Below are positions 20,454-37,699 of a DNA stretch of 64,000 nucleotides, one piece after another; positions within the stretch are counted from its first letter, which is position 1; every line of letters starts with the position of its first letter. Source of the stretch: Escherichia phage EcWhh-1. The DNA lies in the sequence record MH791409.1. One strand, given 5' to 3'. The translations under genes were made by a program, and so were the position numbers. The notes below the pieces were generated by a model that saw only the letters and a list, made by a program, of their open reading frames with translations, ran no database searches and was not told the origin of the DNA.

Positions 20454-20662
20454 AACCATTGCACCTTTAAGCAATATTCTTCTACATGATGTTTACGTTT
20501 ATTTTTATCTATAAAAGTATATTCAACGTATTCACCGATATACCATTTATCGGTGTTGTGTTGACTTTTTATAGGGCATTTAGTTACTCGGGTTTCAGTC
20601 CAACGTCGAATAATTTCCGCTTTGTTTTTAGGGTCAAACGGATGTGGGTAATGGGCTTTCAT
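20450..20662 (-). CDS. Hypothetical protein, 70 aa
   Basis: ORF; overlaps macro gene 3' end by 29 nt. Confidence 0.45.
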   Translation of the reverse strand: MKAHYPHPFDPKNKAEIIRRWTETRVTKCPIKSQHNTDKWYIGEYVEYTFIDKNKRKHHVEEYCLKVQWL

Positions 20663-21101
20663 AATCTACCACCACTAAATTAATATCAGGAGTAAACAAA
20701 TTAATCAATTGATAAACCTTGTCCCAATCACCACCAGCAATACCACAACCGATACGAGGGATATAAATTCTTGGTTTAAACAAAAGACCCTTTGCGGTAC
20801 GGTTTAATTCTATCATACAGTTTACTAAAGCACCGTAATCAAGATTAGGACCTGGTTCGTATTGGGTGTATAAATTATAGCAAATTTGGCCCTTATTACC
20901 TGTGGCTTGAGTAAACGTGCCAAGTTTTTCCAAATGGCCTAAATAAGTGGTTTTATCGATAGCGAGAATAGGCGGATAAGCCTTAGCCAATTGTCCGGCT
21001 ACACCTGAACCCATTGTGTGGAAACAGTTGCACCCGTGCGCAACATTATTGCCTTGAAGAAACAGGGCGACGATATCGCCCTTAATATAATCAATAATCA
21101 T
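20634..21101 (-). CDS. Macro-domain (ADP-ribose-binding/processing) protein, 155 aa
   Basis: GNNVAHGCNCFHTMGSGVAGQLAKAYP resembles the macro-domain NAAN...GGGV.G.I ADP-ribose pocket; size typical of a stand-alone macro domain. Confidence 0.6.
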   Translation of the reverse strand: MIIDYIKGDIVALFLQGNNVAHGCNCFHTMGSGVAGQLAKAYPPILAIDKTTYLGHLEKLGTFTQATGNKGQICYNLYTQYEPGPNLDYGALVNCMIELNRTAKGLLFKPRIYIPRIGCGIAGGDWDKVYQLINLFTPDINLVVVDYESPLPTSV

Positions 21102-21454
21102 TTAGAGTTTAATCCTCGATTGTAAGAATCGACGAGTCTGTCTACCATAGACGCGCACATTTCTTTGTACTTTTTATCAGATGGAATACATTCAGTAACG
21201 TTTAGACGTTGCTCGTATCTTTTAGAAAGAGTTTTCTCTTTCATTCGGCGATGCTCTACGTCGTTCTGGCCATCTTTAAAAGCAGCTGTGATTTTTGAAC
21301 TGAATTCGATAACGCATTCAGTATTACTTGGATGACAATAATCTTTTGCTGTACGGGTAGCATACTCGACAATTGAATTATTGCTATCATCAACTTGTGA
21401 CGCTAATACTCCCGGAGCTATCAACATAAGCGCTATAGTCATCTGCTTAATCAT
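21098..21454 (-). CDS. Secreted Cys-containing protein, 118 aa (signal peptide)
   Basis: MIKQMTIALMLIAPGVLASQ signal peptide; four Cys in mature part. Confidence 0.5.
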   Translation of the reverse strand: MIKQMTIALMLIAPGVLASQVDDSNNSIVEYATRTAKDYCHPSNTECVIEFSSKITAAFKDGQNDVEHRRMKEKTLSKRYEQRLNVTECIPSDKKYKEMCASMVDRLVDSYNRGLNSK

Positions 21455-21994
21455 TTAATATACCGCCTCAAACATCTTTTTAGATTTTAGGTAATTGGCC
21501 TTTTCTAGAACTTCAGAAGCATATTTACTGCCTGCTTTGACGTTCCAGCCCGCATTATAAGAAGCAATCGCTTTTCTCAGGTCACCTTTGTGAACATCAA
21601 TCCAATAAGACAGTTCAATGTAGGCCCAAGAGGCACTGTTCTGTCGTTTTTGGACCATACGAATTATTTCTTTGTCTGACATCTTCCAACCTACCTGTTG
21701 AACACGACTTCTTAACGTAGGCAAGTAATTTTGGAACATGCCATAAGCATGGTGCTTATCTTTATTTAAACCTTGATTAATTCCGGCTGATGATTCCTGC
21801 CATAGTAATCCGGCCATGATATATCCTAATCCTTTTTGATTAGGGTTTTCTTTGAACTTTCCCGACTTTTGGTATTGTTCACCGAAAGCATACGCATAAT
21901 GTAAATTATCGAGTTGTTCATTACTGAAAGTAGGCTCTACGCTATAGGCAGACATACTAACTGTCAATAGTAAAGTGGCTAATACTTTTTTCAT
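21455..21994 (-). CDS. Secreted lytic transglycosylase (SLT-domain)-like protein, 179 aa
   Basis: signal peptide MKKVLATLLLTVSMSAYS; SLT-like motifs QESS, GMFQ, SYNAG. Confidence 0.55.
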   Translation of the reverse strand: MKKVLATLLLTVSMSAYSVEPTFSNEQLDNLHYAYAFGEQYQKSGKFKENPNQKGLGYIMAGLLWQESSAGINQGLNKDKHHAYGMFQNYLPTLRSRVQQVGWKMSDKEIIRMVQKRQNSASWAYIELSYWIDVHKGDLRKAIASYNAGWNVKAGSKYASEVLEKANYLKSKKMFEAVY

Positions 21995-22006
21995 GAGACC
22001 TCATTA

Positions 22007-22465
22007 TTAAAGATAGATTACTTTCGTGCTGGTTTTACCTTCTAAACGTTTAGAGTTAACAAATGCCATACGACATTTTAATGAATATCCTTTATCAGGA
22101 TGTTTACGATCTACGGTCATACCCAACCATAAGGTTTTATCGGTAATCTCGAGACGCAGCGGACGATACACCTTACCTGGGACAATTTCGGATTCTACAT
22201 CAGGCAGAGGTTCCTGGATTAAGAATTCATGGATTTCTTTAACATGGTTATGGAGTTGCTTGAATAAAGCAAAAACGTATTTTTCGTCGATTTCACGTTG
22301 GATAGCACGGTCCAACAAATGATTGGAGTACTTAATAAAGAAGGCTGGGACTCCGCTCTTAATGGCGGCTTTTTTGATGGACGCATTCAGTTCACGGAAT
22401 TCGGTTTCAAACTGACGACGTAATTTGTTGCGGCGGATGAATACTTCTGAATTAATTTCTGACAT
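22007..22465 (-). CDS. regB: Endoribonuclease RegB
   Basis: 152 aa; EVFIRRNKLRRQFETEFREL...HLLDRAIQREIDEKYVF...LEITDKTLWLG matches T4 RegB. Confidence 0.9.
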   Translation of the reverse strand: MSEINSEVFIRRNKLRRQFETEFRELNASIKKAAIKSGVPAFFIKYSNHLLDRAIQREIDEKYVFALFKQLHNHVKEIHEFLIQEPLPDVESEIVPGKVYRPLRLEITDKTLWLGMTVDRKHPDKGYSLKCRMAFVNSKRLEGKTSTKVIYL

Positions 22466-22471
22466 TTTGTA

Positions 22472-22522
22472 ATCTCCTGTAGTTGATAGGTTTATAGTAT
22501 CATGTCTACAGGAGATGTAAAC
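22472..22522 (-). promoter_or_regulatory. PeSL-like early promoter cassette upstream of regB (GTTTAC, 17 bp, TACTAT, stem TCTCCTGTAG/CTACAGGAGA)
   Basis: minus strand GTTTACATCTCCTGTAGACATGATACTATAAACCTATCAACTACAGGAGATT. Confidence 0.6.
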
Positions 22523-25020: not shown

Positions 25021-25418
25021 TATTTGTAAGTTTTCATCCAATTCTTAAACAAAGCTGCGACGTCTTTCTCTTTAACGTTCAATTTAACGTCCAGCATTTT
25101 GCCACCAGCGGCACGTGTCTGACGAATCTTAGCCGTACCGGTTTCGCCATTCCACTCAACATAATACTGTCCGGTGTTCATAGCGATACCATCGCCATAG
25201 TCTTCGTTCTTAGAAGTAGTGAATGCTAACTTCATGGTCTTAGAGACACGGGCCTGCATGCCTGTCTGCAGAGCGTTACGAACGCGAATAACCTGAGGAG
25301 TGGCCTGGGTAAGGTTCTCATTCAGTTCTTCAGTGAACTCTTCGGATTCAAACATCGCCAAAAGTTCTTTAGATGCAGGAATTACATTCTCTGCGATAAA
25401 TTCATTATAAGTTTTCAT
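25020..25418 (-). CDS. Internal-protein-like capsid-targeted protein ([13 protein letters not shown]), 132 aa
   Basis: N-terminal [11 protein letters not shown] leader. Confidence 0.6.
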
Positions 25419-25899
25419 ATGCTTTCCAAGTACCTGTTTTAAATGTAGAAATCACGCGCTTAGCACGATTAGGAGTTTGTCTATACCAACGAGATTGAGC
25501 CAGGTTAACTGCCGCATCGTCCCAACGTTTCTGTTGGAGCATACGTAAAGAGTTAGTGAACCCTGCTACGCCTGCTTCACCCATTTGGAAGACCATGTTA
25601 ATTAAAGCACAACGACGAACTTCGTCCAGTACATCATAAACAGGTTTCAATTTAGGATTACGCAGAATAGCTCTACGAGCATTTTCAACCGATCGGTTAA
25701 AGAGTTGCTCAGCTTCAGCCATAGTAATACGACCGTTGCAAACTCGACCCATAAGCTTATCAAGTTCAGCGCGAGCAACATCTTTAGATGGGTTCTTGGT
25801 AATCAACTGGCCAATGCCAATAGTCCAATAACCTTCGGTGTCTTTATAAAGATTTAAATCAAGACCTTCGTCTTGACGTAACATATCAAAAATATCCAT
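25405..25899 (-). CDS. e: Endolysin (T4 lysozyme e)
   Basis: 164 aa; [23 protein letters not shown]...[30 protein letters not shown] matches T4 lysozyme. Confidence 0.95.
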
Positions 25900-34122: not shown

Positions 34123-34677
34123 TCAGTTCTTGTAGAACCGGAACGGGTTCACGTGGAAGGCCAACATAGCTTTAGGGATTTTACGAGACAAAAGACTCTT
34201 AAGCTTCCAGCCACAGTACACGCGAAGGTAAAATGTGATTCCGCCGACCTTAAGATAAGGAACTGAAGCAAATACACCCCAGGCGTCATCATTCCACATC
34301 CACAACCAACCATGGTGAGCTTTATCAGGAGAACCTGATTCTACGTCAGGATTACCACGATAATGGAATTCCGAGCTACAATCACGGCCTAGTTTATGAT
34401 AAGCAAAGTTATAAGCTTTATTTCGCCATAGCCAAGCTACTCTCTGGAGATAAACACCACCAGGCATTTTCCTGATTTTAGCCCAACGTTTAATATGACC
34501 TTTATCGCCGTCAATTGGATTATCGTATGTCATCATCCAATCAAAACCGTATGGCAATTTACCAGTCTTTTTATTATGAAAAGGAACCACAAAAGGCGCA
34601 AGGATAACGGCTAGAACCATAGAGATAAAATCTAGTGGGACCAACAGAATCCAACTCAAATATTTTAAAAGTTTCAT
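34123..34677 (-). CDS. Late-expressed membrane protein, 184 aa
   Basis: N-terminal hydrophobic helices; SD AGGAAATAAT + ATG; late promoter upstream. Confidence 0.6.
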   Translation of the reverse strand: MKLLKYLSWILLVPLDFISMVLAVILAPFVVPFHNKKTGKLPYGFDWMMTYDNPIDGDKGHIKRWAKIRKMPGGVYLQRVAWLWRNKAYNFAYHKLGRDCSSEFHYRGNPDVESGSPDKAHHGWLWMWNDDAWGVFASVPYLKVGGITFYLRVYCGWKLKSLLSRKIPKAMLAFHVNPFRFYKN

Positions 34678-37112: not shown

Positions 37113-37514
37113 TTAACCCTCGTCTACAATAGTGTGGGTATTGGCATTAACAATCTGCCACCAGCCAAAACGATTAGAACCGTAAAGAGGCTTATTCTCG
37201 TTTTCTTTAATGATATCGCGCAGTTCATCTTCAGAGAAGGCTTTAGCGATTAAATCAGTATACCCGCCGCGTGGATAATAATTATCACCCGCAAACAAAA
37301 GGAAATTTACCTTTCCGGAAGGAACATATGCTTCCTTAGGATACTTGTTTCCTGCGTGGTCGACAACTTCAATATAACGGTAAGGAATATCAGTTCTTTC
37401 AACCCATTGCCATGCCGCTGCAGGGGATTCAAAAGCATCTACACCTAAACGGTTATCTTCATCTTTAGACGGATTATTTTCGTAATCCGCATATACATAA
37501 TATTCAACGTTCAT
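37113..37514 (-). CDS. Hypothetical protein, 133 aa
   Basis: ORF. Confidence 0.5.
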   Translation of the reverse strand: MNVEYYVYADYENNPSKDEDNRLGVDAFESPAAAWQWVERTDIPYRYIEVVDHAGNKYPKEAYVPSGKVNFLLFAGDNYYPRGGYTDLIAKAFSEDELRDIIKENENKPLYGSNRFGWWQIVNANTHTIVDEG

Positions 37515-37699
37515 TATTCACCTTTAGAGATTTTATCCATAACGAAAGAGATTGAACCAATTAAGAATGCCACTACTAAAGAGATTGTATTCTCGGAAGT
37601 TGTAAGCAAATCCAACATGAATCCTGCAAACATACTAAAGCCAAAAGCAGTAACGGCGGTCAGTGCAGTAACATTTCTAATTAATTCACAACGTTTCAT
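37514..37699 (-). CDS. Small membrane protein, about 61 aa
   Basis: start moved to ATG 37699 with SD TGGAGAA; two hydrophobic helices. Confidence 0.45.
   Translation of the reverse strand: MKRCELIRNVTALTAVTAFGFSMFAGFMLDLLTTSENTISLVVAFLIGSISFVMDKISKGE

Follow-up and report, generated by a model that had tools for sequence, protein, structure and literature searches.

Why should a T4-like phage place a gene named for its effect on a cytoplasmic host enzyme directly behind a gene for a putative wall-cutting enzyme, when both products begin like secreted proteins? The question is raised by a 64,000-nt stretch of Escherichia phage EcWhh-1 (sequence record MH791409.1), referred to here as the window. 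An original prediction, made from the nucleotide sequence, had reported two adjacent open reading frames (ORFs) of 179 and 118 amino acids (aa), and they lie exactly where it had placed them, both on the minus strand. By their sequence matches the two are the T4-type genes vs.1 and vs, already catalogued and sited between regB and tk.4:

21455-21994, minus strand: vs.1 coding sequence; precursor of 179 aa and 20.5 kDa, predicted mature protein of 161 aa and 18.6 kDa with an isoelectric point of 9.4
21098-21454, minus strand: vs coding sequence; precursor of 118 aa and 13.4 kDa, predicted mature protein of 100 aa and 11.5 kDa

The reading that we moderately favor takes them as a pair exported by the Sec pathway and cleaved, with Vs.1 an active lytic transglycosylase, Vs its disulfide-stabilized periplasmic partner, and the two together serving an accessory role at the cell wall. 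Computed here were the identity of the genes, the fold, the conservation of the motifs, the signal-peptide features and the strict coupling of the two genes.

Identity of the Gene Pair

The 179-aa ORF matches phrog_600 (E 4.6e-67), a family labeled "unknown function," and its product is 99% identical to Vs.1 of phage JS10. The 118-aa ORF matches phrog_1256, "valyl tRNA synthetase modifier" (E 3.6e-34), and its product is 100% identical to Vs of phage Bp7; PF26829 is recorded for it, as for all Vs homologues. A Pfam scan of the window proteins returned no model matching Vs, and NCBIfam and PADLOC gave no match for either protein. Over 1.9 kb, nucleotide identity to Escherichia phages Bp7, C6, AnYang and IME08 is 97%; the gene order is that of Bp7, IME08 and C6, and the annotation of Bp7 (genus Dhakavirus) names these same ORFs vs.1 and vs. 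The window phage is a Dhakavirus, a T-even phage of the Bp7/JS10/IME08 kind. The genes are closely packed. The TAA stop of vs.1 abuts the ATG of vs directly, the TGA stop of vs shares an ATGA overlap with the start of tk.4, the gap from the regB stop to vs.1 is only 12 nt, and vs.1 and vs each have a GAGG Shine-Dalgarno sequence ahead of the start.

The orthologous pair of T4 provides the obvious reference. T4 Vs.1 (T4p112, UniProt P13311, PHROG 600) is a 181-aa protein encoded between regB and vs, with the motifs WQESS, GMFQ and SYNSG; it is ~67%–68% identical to the window copy, a figure taken from T4-type loci with an 8-nt overlap. Those 8 nt are shared by the two ORFs in T4, whereas the window pair abuts. 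T4 Vs (T4p111, UniProt P13310, PHROG 1256, PF26829), the tau factor, belongs to the same family as the window Vs, with four Cys in register and the same invariant C-terminal SMVDRLVDSYNRGL; its identity to the window protein is below 50%, which is a bound rather than a direct pairwise figure.

The 118-aa product had been described as a Cys-containing periplasmic protein. Its four Cys and export-like N-terminus agree with that description, but its identity as Vs, annotated as a modifier of valyl-tRNA synthetase (ValRS) and hence given a cytoplasmic role, had been missed. So had the fact that both genes are the known vs.1 and vs, and that the likeness of vs.1 to soluble lytic transglycosylases (SLT) already appears in the literature (PMC1524935) and in UniRef names.

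Vs.1 Resembles Family-1 Lytic Transglycosylases

The three SLT-like motifs to which the original prediction had pointed (QESS, GMFQ and SYNAG) are present in Vs.1:

21788-21802, minus strand: W65-Q-E67-S-S69, predicted catalytic Glu motif (E-S, motif I of family-1 lytic transglycosylases)
21731-21742, minus strand: G85-M-F-Q88, motif II (G-L-M-Q type)
21548-21562, minus strand: S145-Y-N-A-G149, motif III (A-Y-N-x-G type)

They support a likeness to SLT enzymes of glycoside hydrolase family 23 (GH23), and they fall in register with the catalytic Glu and the groove residues of solved enzymes, namely EtgA and the goose-type (g-type) lysozymes: E67-S68 stands opposite SRES of the goose-type lysozymes, and SYNAG opposite their AYNAG. 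W65, E67, S68, W131, Y146, G149 and Y158 do not vary among 31 sequences that reach as low as 24% identity. The close family adds G85 and Q88, as well as all of Y146, N147, A148 and G149, to the invariant set; in the wide family G85 is at least 90% conserved, and the position of Q88 is often His in distant relatives. No Asp is invariant in the family. All Vs.1 homologues are 110–196 aa long.

Domain prediction points the same way, with the Pfam SLT model (PF01464) matched by 28 of 29 family members at E ≤ 0.1 (best E 1.3e-7), though the window copy itself falls below the Pfam threshold. Many family members carry a precomputed PF01464 match, and relatives appear in UniRef under the name "Transglycosylase SLT domain-containing protein." An AlphaFold2 model made from an alignment of 29 sequences (predicted local distance difference test score, pLDDT, 84.7) has the all-helical catalytic fold of the goose lysozyme kind, and its top 19 Foldseek matches are all GH23 enzymes, with weak E-values. 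A direct sequence search of the PDB with Vs.1 found nothing. The wide Vs.1 profile, comprising the family plus relatives at 24%–37% identity, matches EtgA (E 0.0024), the transglycosylase of the type III secretion system of enteropathogenic Escherichia coli and a member of the IagB/IpgF/VirB1 class (GH23, family 1) of small Sec-exported lytic transglycosylases. By this alignment EtgA is the best solved sequence relative of Vs.1; its AWNES lies opposite AWQESS, its AYNAG opposite SYNAG, and the C-terminal Y-A-x-x-(I/V) helices are also paired.

The likeness has its limits. When Vs.1 HHAYGMFQ is re-aligned by hand against EtgA TYDIGIMQ, Vs.1 Ala83 falls opposite what we take to be the auxiliary Asp60 of EtgA. 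Vs.1 further differs from EtgA in having an extra N-terminal helix and hairpin (residues 25–56), in being phage encoded, and in lying beside no secretion machine. To the catalytic domains of Slt70, Slt, MltF and MltE it shows 13%–15% sequence identity, and unlike these enzymes it has no superhelical, LysM or ATP-binding-cassette-type accessory domain and no lipid anchor. The lack of an invariant Asp, together with Ala83 opposite the presumed Asp60, would favor a lytic transglycosylase with a single catalytic Glu over a lysozyme. Likewise, the hydrolase-specific acidic residues of the g-type lysozymes, presumably Asp86 and Asp97, apparently have no counterpart in a family without an invariant Asp.

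The SLT resemblance of vs.1 is not new, having been published in 2006 by Nolan et al., who cited earlier T4 PSI-BLAST matches (PMC1524935). With both genes catalogued as well, the value of this work as discovery is small. What vs.1 gains, as one of the few conserved, function-unassigned T4 genes with a measurable fitness score (PMC11879866), is a concrete and testable assignment as a predicted Sec-exported, EtgA-like lytic transglycosylase with Glu67 as candidate catalyst.

A single cellular relative of the Vs.1 clade was seen in 185,579 bacterial and archaeal genomes, at 26% identity, in Helicobacter saguini (NZ_JRMP02000009.1; locus L079:3758-4492). In this exported protein a linker of Ser/Lys-rich repeats precedes the Vs.1-like domain (AAIAWKESCAG ... 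SYNSGF). It adjoins two small ORFs, seemingly toxin-antitoxin-like, a context that is uninformative.

Predicted Export Signals

Both N-termini resemble signal peptides:

21941-21994, minus strand: Vs.1 signal peptide, residues 1–18, MKKVLATLLLTVSMSAYS then VEPTF; from the heuristic and family conservation
21401-21454, minus strand: Vs signal peptide, residues 1–18, MIKQMTIALMLIAPGVLA then SQVDD; from the heuristic and homologues

The heuristic is a crude one of our own rather than SignalP, and it asks for charge in the n-region, a nine-residue uncharged hydrophobic core, and small residues at −3/−1. Vs.1 parses as MKK / VLATLLLTVSM / SAYS with the predicted cut before VE, and Vs as MIK / QMTIALMLIAPGVLA with the predicted cut before SQ, so that in each a positively charged n-region leads into an uncharged, hydrophobic core, 11–14 residues long, and a small-residue −3/−1 site. 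The window has 118 non-overlapping ATG ORFs, of which only five pass, and among these five Vs.1 and Vs have the top two hydrophobic-core scores. Of the homologues, 27 of 29 for Vs.1 and 25 of 26 for Vs also pass, the failures looking like start-codon calls (N-termini extended or truncated relative to other members). The claim that both ORFs start with a classical signal peptide thus gains support from the heuristic and from the homologues, and Vs.1 and Vs are both predicted to be exported via Sec with a type I signal peptide.

Several further features agree with this prediction. The N-terminal sequence drifts freely among homologues while the signal-peptide features persist. AlphaFold2 confidence is low over residues 1–20 of Vs.1 (pLDDT 56–59) and residues 1–21 of Vs (pLDDT <50), and high beyond both N-termini. 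Vs.1 has no lipobox, and indeed no Cys in the entire protein. The T4 proteins follow the same pattern, with MTKILVLCIGLISFSASASA then DTSY in Vs (...SASASA before the cut) and MRKALLAGLLAISMMAHS then SEHTF in Vs.1, giving predicted mature N-termini of DTSYTEIR... and SEHTFSNVQLDNMR..., respectively.

One lineage of phages, mainly of Enterobacter, offers a different N-terminus for a Vs-like protein, MKKLFVLLVVVALSGC, which holds a lipobox (LSGC) while the four family Cys are kept (L numbers denote the viral loci compared below):

L029:4549-4875; also L030, L031, L035 and L049: lipobox Vs-like protein of Enterobacter phages KMB19, RZH and id4496 and Erwinia phage COW86c

This lipobox is canonical, and the Lys at its +2 position would mark the protein as a lipoprotein destined for the outer membrane. 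Such a variant makes little sense for a protein that does not pass through the envelope export machinery.

Two other window ORFs on the minus strand also pass the heuristic: one at 34123-34677 (184 aa, starting MKLLKYLSWILLVPL) and one at 37514-37699 (61 aa), with a second hydrophobic stretch; these are probably membrane proteins.

The Vs Family

Beyond its N-terminus, the most distinctive feature of Vs is its set of Cys residues:

21155-21337, minus strand: span of the four invariant Vs Cys codons, C40 (21335-21337), C47 (21314-21316), C89 (21188-21190) and C100 (21155-21157)

All four are invariant in the family alignment, as is the C-terminal SMVDRLVDSYNRGL. The AlphaFold2 model (pLDDT 78.5) is a four-helix bundle formed by residues 23–39, 45–67, 73–89 and 94–115, in which three Cys sit at helix ends beside the H1–H2 and H3–H4 loops and C100 lies a few residues into H4. 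The spacing within the Cys loops varies among homologues (C-x5/6-C and C-x8/10-C), a pattern more in keeping with disulfides than with a metal site of fixed geometry; the four Cys would most likely form two disulfides. N-terminally His-tagged T4 Vs was found only in inclusion bodies (Zhang et al. 2021, PMC8076793), a behavior weakly suggestive of, or at least compatible with, a protein meant for export.

Relatives outside the T4-like phages were not found, and the family is an orphan. None occurs in the 185,579 bacterial and archaeal genomes, and among 1.84 billion proteins there are eight representative clusters, one of which (P0130, a repetitive protein of 3,694 aa) we discount as an artifact of low complexity. 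A PDB sequence search with Vs returned only noise, and no sequence or fold similarity to any known inhibitor was detectable.

The label "valyl-tRNA synthetase modifier" therefore sits uneasily on vs, as it clashes with the conserved export signal, the lipoprotein variant, and the obligatory coupling to a gene for a predicted wall enzyme. This mismatch, a cytoplasmic function for a protein predicted to be exported, is the only surprising element of the locus. Resolving it would either correct an annotation now carried by hundreds of phage genomes or show by what route an exported peptide reaches a cytoplasmic enzyme.

Conservation of the Pair across Phages

Pairing was surveyed in 75 viral loci encoding Vs.1 relatives. 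In all 53 loci whose Vs.1 is at least 41% identical to that of the window, a Vs or Vs-like ORF begins −8 to +7 nt from the vs.1 stop. These ORFs are usually 99–122 aa long (two truncated or frameshifted copies have 65 and 85 aa) and have a signal peptide and four Cys in the same pattern. About half of the 53 are of a divergent "broad type" (AKxFC..ECxDxLxLELD ... C.xAPx..C.xYR..L), which profile-profile comparison with hhalign joins to Vs with a probability of 98.4% (E 4.6e-15) and the four Cys in register. The hosts of the phages with paired genes include Escherichia, Klebsiella, Enterobacter, Yersinia, Serratia, Proteus, Pseudomonas and Acinetobacter. No fusion of Vs.1 with Vs is visible among the Vs.1 homologues.

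The two partners evolve at different rates. Vs diverges much faster than Vs.1 and swaps between the two types. At L013 and L014 (4552-4872; one of these matches Yersinia phage vB_YenM_TG1), Vs.1 is 79%, RegB 59% and Vs 28% identical to the window proteins. The Vs here is of the broad type, and apparently one type was exchanged for the other in the vs slot without a matching exchange of vs.1. Given this fast drift and type swapping, a mirror-tree analysis is unable to support an interface between the two proteins.

The distant Vs.1 relatives (25%–34% identity, L056–L077) keep the signal peptide and the ES/YNAG motifs and have no Vs. Two of them, in distant T4-like contigs of 183 kb and 166 kb (L056:3962-6028 and L057:3962-6401), are immediately followed by an i-spanin (phrog_739), an o-spanin (phrog_812) and pseT (phrog_505), the gene for polynucleotide kinase; the Vs.1 relative itself matches phrog_600 with E 1.2e-48. 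A transglycosylase gene is here joined to the T4-type pseT.3/pseT.2 spanin operon, and these neighbors are the only contextual hint toward lysis or the envelope.

In many non-T-even T4-like phages a third exported ORF lies between the Vs-like gene and tk.4 (for example L037:4866-5270, L029:4872-5291 and L052:4833-5246); the window has none. It belongs to phrog_4957, has 130–148 aa, a signal peptide and 2–4 Cys, and its mature part starts "AWExLPGYPE." Standing beside Vs.1 and the Vs-like gene, it would make a three-gene cassette of secreted proteins in those phages.

Proposed Function and Alternative Explanations

In the scheme that we propose, vs.1 and vs would be translationally coupled in an early unit, regB-vs.1-vs-tk.4. 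The Vs.1 precursor would leave by Sec and lose about its first 18 residues to signal peptidase I, giving a soluble, basic, single-domain periplasmic protein of 161 aa, a lytic transglycosylase of GH23 and family 1. Glu67 of WQESS would serve as the single acid/base catalyst, with GMFQ and SYNAG lining the glycan groove, and the enzyme would cleave the bonds between N-acetylmuramic acid (MurNAc) and N-acetylglucosamine in the sacculus from the periplasmic side, from early/middle infection onward, most likely leaving 1,6-anhydro-MurNAc ends; the lack of an invariant Asp is at most compatible with such non-hydrolytic cleavage. Vs, exported in the same way as a four-helix bundle of ~100 aa with its Cys clustered at helix ends, most likely in two disulfides, would act in the envelope beside Vs.1 as partner, regulator or inhibitor. 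The role of the pair would be an accessory, non-essential remodeling or priming of peptidoglycan and not essential lysis. Actual export and cleavage, catalysis, the disulfides, an interaction of Vs with Vs.1, and the biological role are what we infer here from the computed features.

The idea of a partner for Vs.1 is drawn by analogy from the transglycosylases of secretion machines. Known enzyme–inhibitor pairs (gp5–Spackle, Tse3–Tsi3, g-lysozyme–PliG) have in common with Vs.1/Vs an adjacent, predicted co-exported layout, and the T4 gp5 lysozyme and Spackle in particular would resemble the proposed pair in joining a periplasmic muralytic activity to a small exported protein. The small protein of the window pair shows no likeness to any known inhibitor.

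Several points weigh against the scheme. Against Pfam SLT the window Vs.1 has E 0.011 and 15.7 bits, short of the gathering cut-off of 21.3 bits, and its motif II is GMFQ, deviating from GLMQ. Biochemical activity has been reported for no member of the Vs.1 family, and the export call is drawn from a home-made heuristic and conservation. The type of Vs and its Vs.1 are not tightly co-inherited, which argues against a finely co-evolved enzyme–inhibitor interface. Since T4 fails to lyse its host when e is mutated, Vs.1 cannot by itself dissolve the wall. Finally, the reported ValRS binding and phenotypes on valS(ts) hosts imply a cytoplasmic pool of Vs.

This last point leads to a possible, if lesser, explanation, in which Vs is the cytoplasmic tau peptide that modifies the host ValRS. 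The N-terminus would then not be a productive export signal, or export would be partial; the link to vs.1 would be mere operon synteny, and only Vs.1 would act in the envelope. In classical T4 work (Marchin, Neidhardt, Valerie), infection reportedly stabilizes a thermolabile ValRS, vs mutants are said to have been selected on valS(ts) hosts, with in vivo phenotypes that fit such a role, and a tau peptide of ~10 kDa that binds ValRS was reportedly purified. Reports of this binding are confined to T-even phages. Every source names the Vs family a valyl-tRNA synthetase modifier, T4 Vs is in that same family, and the swapping of Vs types with no matching change in Vs.1 is as expected of mere neighbors. 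PMC8076793 cites the classical genetic and biochemical work, and a T4 knock-down screen also separates the two genes, vs.1 being scored as Semi-Fit (PMC11879866 supplement) and vs (0.35) and regB as Not Fit (PMC11879866 supplements).

Other evidence fits a cytoplasmic Vs poorly. The signal-peptide features recur in nearly all Vs homologues and in T4 Vs, one lineage has exchanged them for an LSGC lipobox with the four other Cys retained, and four invariant Cys at variable spacing suit disulfides. The family is found in phages of Acinetobacter, Proteus, Pseudomonas and Serratia too, always beside vs.1. The predicted mass of T4 Vs is 11.0 kDa when mature and 13.1 kDa as precursor. The mature mass lies nearer to the ~10 kDa reported for tau, which suggests that the purified factor may be the form processed by signal peptidase, an enzyme facing the periplasm; in that case either a share of the processed Vs would encounter ValRS, or the two would associate only once cells are broken. 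A bolder form of the periplasmic reading, which we regard as doubtful, would make Vs primarily a disulfide-bonded periplasmic regulator or inhibitor of Vs.1, lipid-anchored in one lineage, and would reduce the 50-year-old "modification" of ValRS to a secondary or extract-level association.

It is unlikely that the pair is an accessory lysis device, in which Vs.1 would be an exported endolysin-like enzyme, restrained (possibly by Vs) until holin triggering and then aiding endolysin and spanins. Such a device would suit the Vs.1 relative placed directly upstream of the i-spanin, o-spanin and pseT genes at L056/L057, and the retention of signal peptide and ES/YNAG motifs in all distant relatives; those spanin-linked loci, however, have no Vs. 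In the window as in T4, the pair belongs to an early unit and t lies far away, no holin adjoins vs.1/vs, and Vs is unlike any known inhibitor. The late expression and holin or spanin neighbors of a lysis-cassette endolysin are not found for the window vs.1, whose neighbors are regB and tk.4. The gene e for the canonical cytoplasmic endolysin, from which the original prediction had kept Vs.1 apart, is indeed a separate gene at 25405-25899 on the minus strand, 3.4 kb from vs.1/vs, and the lysis failure of T4 e mutants, noted above, also argues against a lysis role for the pair. Phage endolysins with a signal-anchor-release (SAR) sequence or a signal peptide are likewise exported before lysis; Vs.1 differs in being early and not late, and its signal peptide looks cleavable rather than of the SAR kind.

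We consider it improbable that Vs.1 is an inert peptidoglycan-binding protein or decoy with an SLT-like fold, for example one that titrates host lysozyme or transglycosylase inhibitors or marks sites on the sacculus. The marginal Pfam score of the window copy, the off-consensus motif II with its frequent His for Q88 in distant relatives, and the absence of any reported enzymatic activity would all fit, and an active muralytic enzyme exported early would endanger the phage. Very improbable is a role of the pair in altering the wall for superinfection exclusion or for protection from lysis-from-without, for which one may cite early-made, predicted periplasmic proteins, as with T4 Imm and Sp, and a small vs.1 fitness effect at a multiplicity of infection of 10, but for which we found no specific evidence; imm and sp already explain exclusion in T4, and cutting of peptidoglycan is expected to help, not hinder, an incoming tail.

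Transcription Unit and Neighboring Genes

The surroundings of the pair are as follows:

22494-22521, minus strand: sigma-70-like promoter match (TTTACA-16-TACTAT, with TG) upstream of regB, from a consensus scan only
22007-22465, minus strand: regB, endoribonuclease gene upstream of vs.1 (Pfam REGB_T4, E 4.7e-69)
20634-21101, minus strand: tk.4, macro-domain protein gene downstream of vs (Pfam Macro, E 1.3e-7)

The match upstream of regB is a possible early promoter for regB-vs.1-vs-tk.4; the consensus scan gave fewer matches in the region than in its shuffles, so that the match is weak on its own. Expression from the early region, as originally proposed, agrees with time-resolved omics of T4, in which the orthologous vs.1 and vs mRNAs are early, though both proteins are classed as middle (PMC9697503 supplement).

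The Shine-Dalgarno sequences of vs.1 and vs (21995-22006 and 21455-21480, minus strand) read GAGG and not GGAG, the cleavage motif of RegB. Both mRNAs may for this reason escape inactivation by RegB, and such an escape would fit the T4 pattern of early RNA and middle-class protein.

The product of tk.4, coupled to vs through the ATGA overlap, is labeled "phosphatase" in PHROG; it is likely an ADP-ribose-processing enzyme made from the same early unit as vs.

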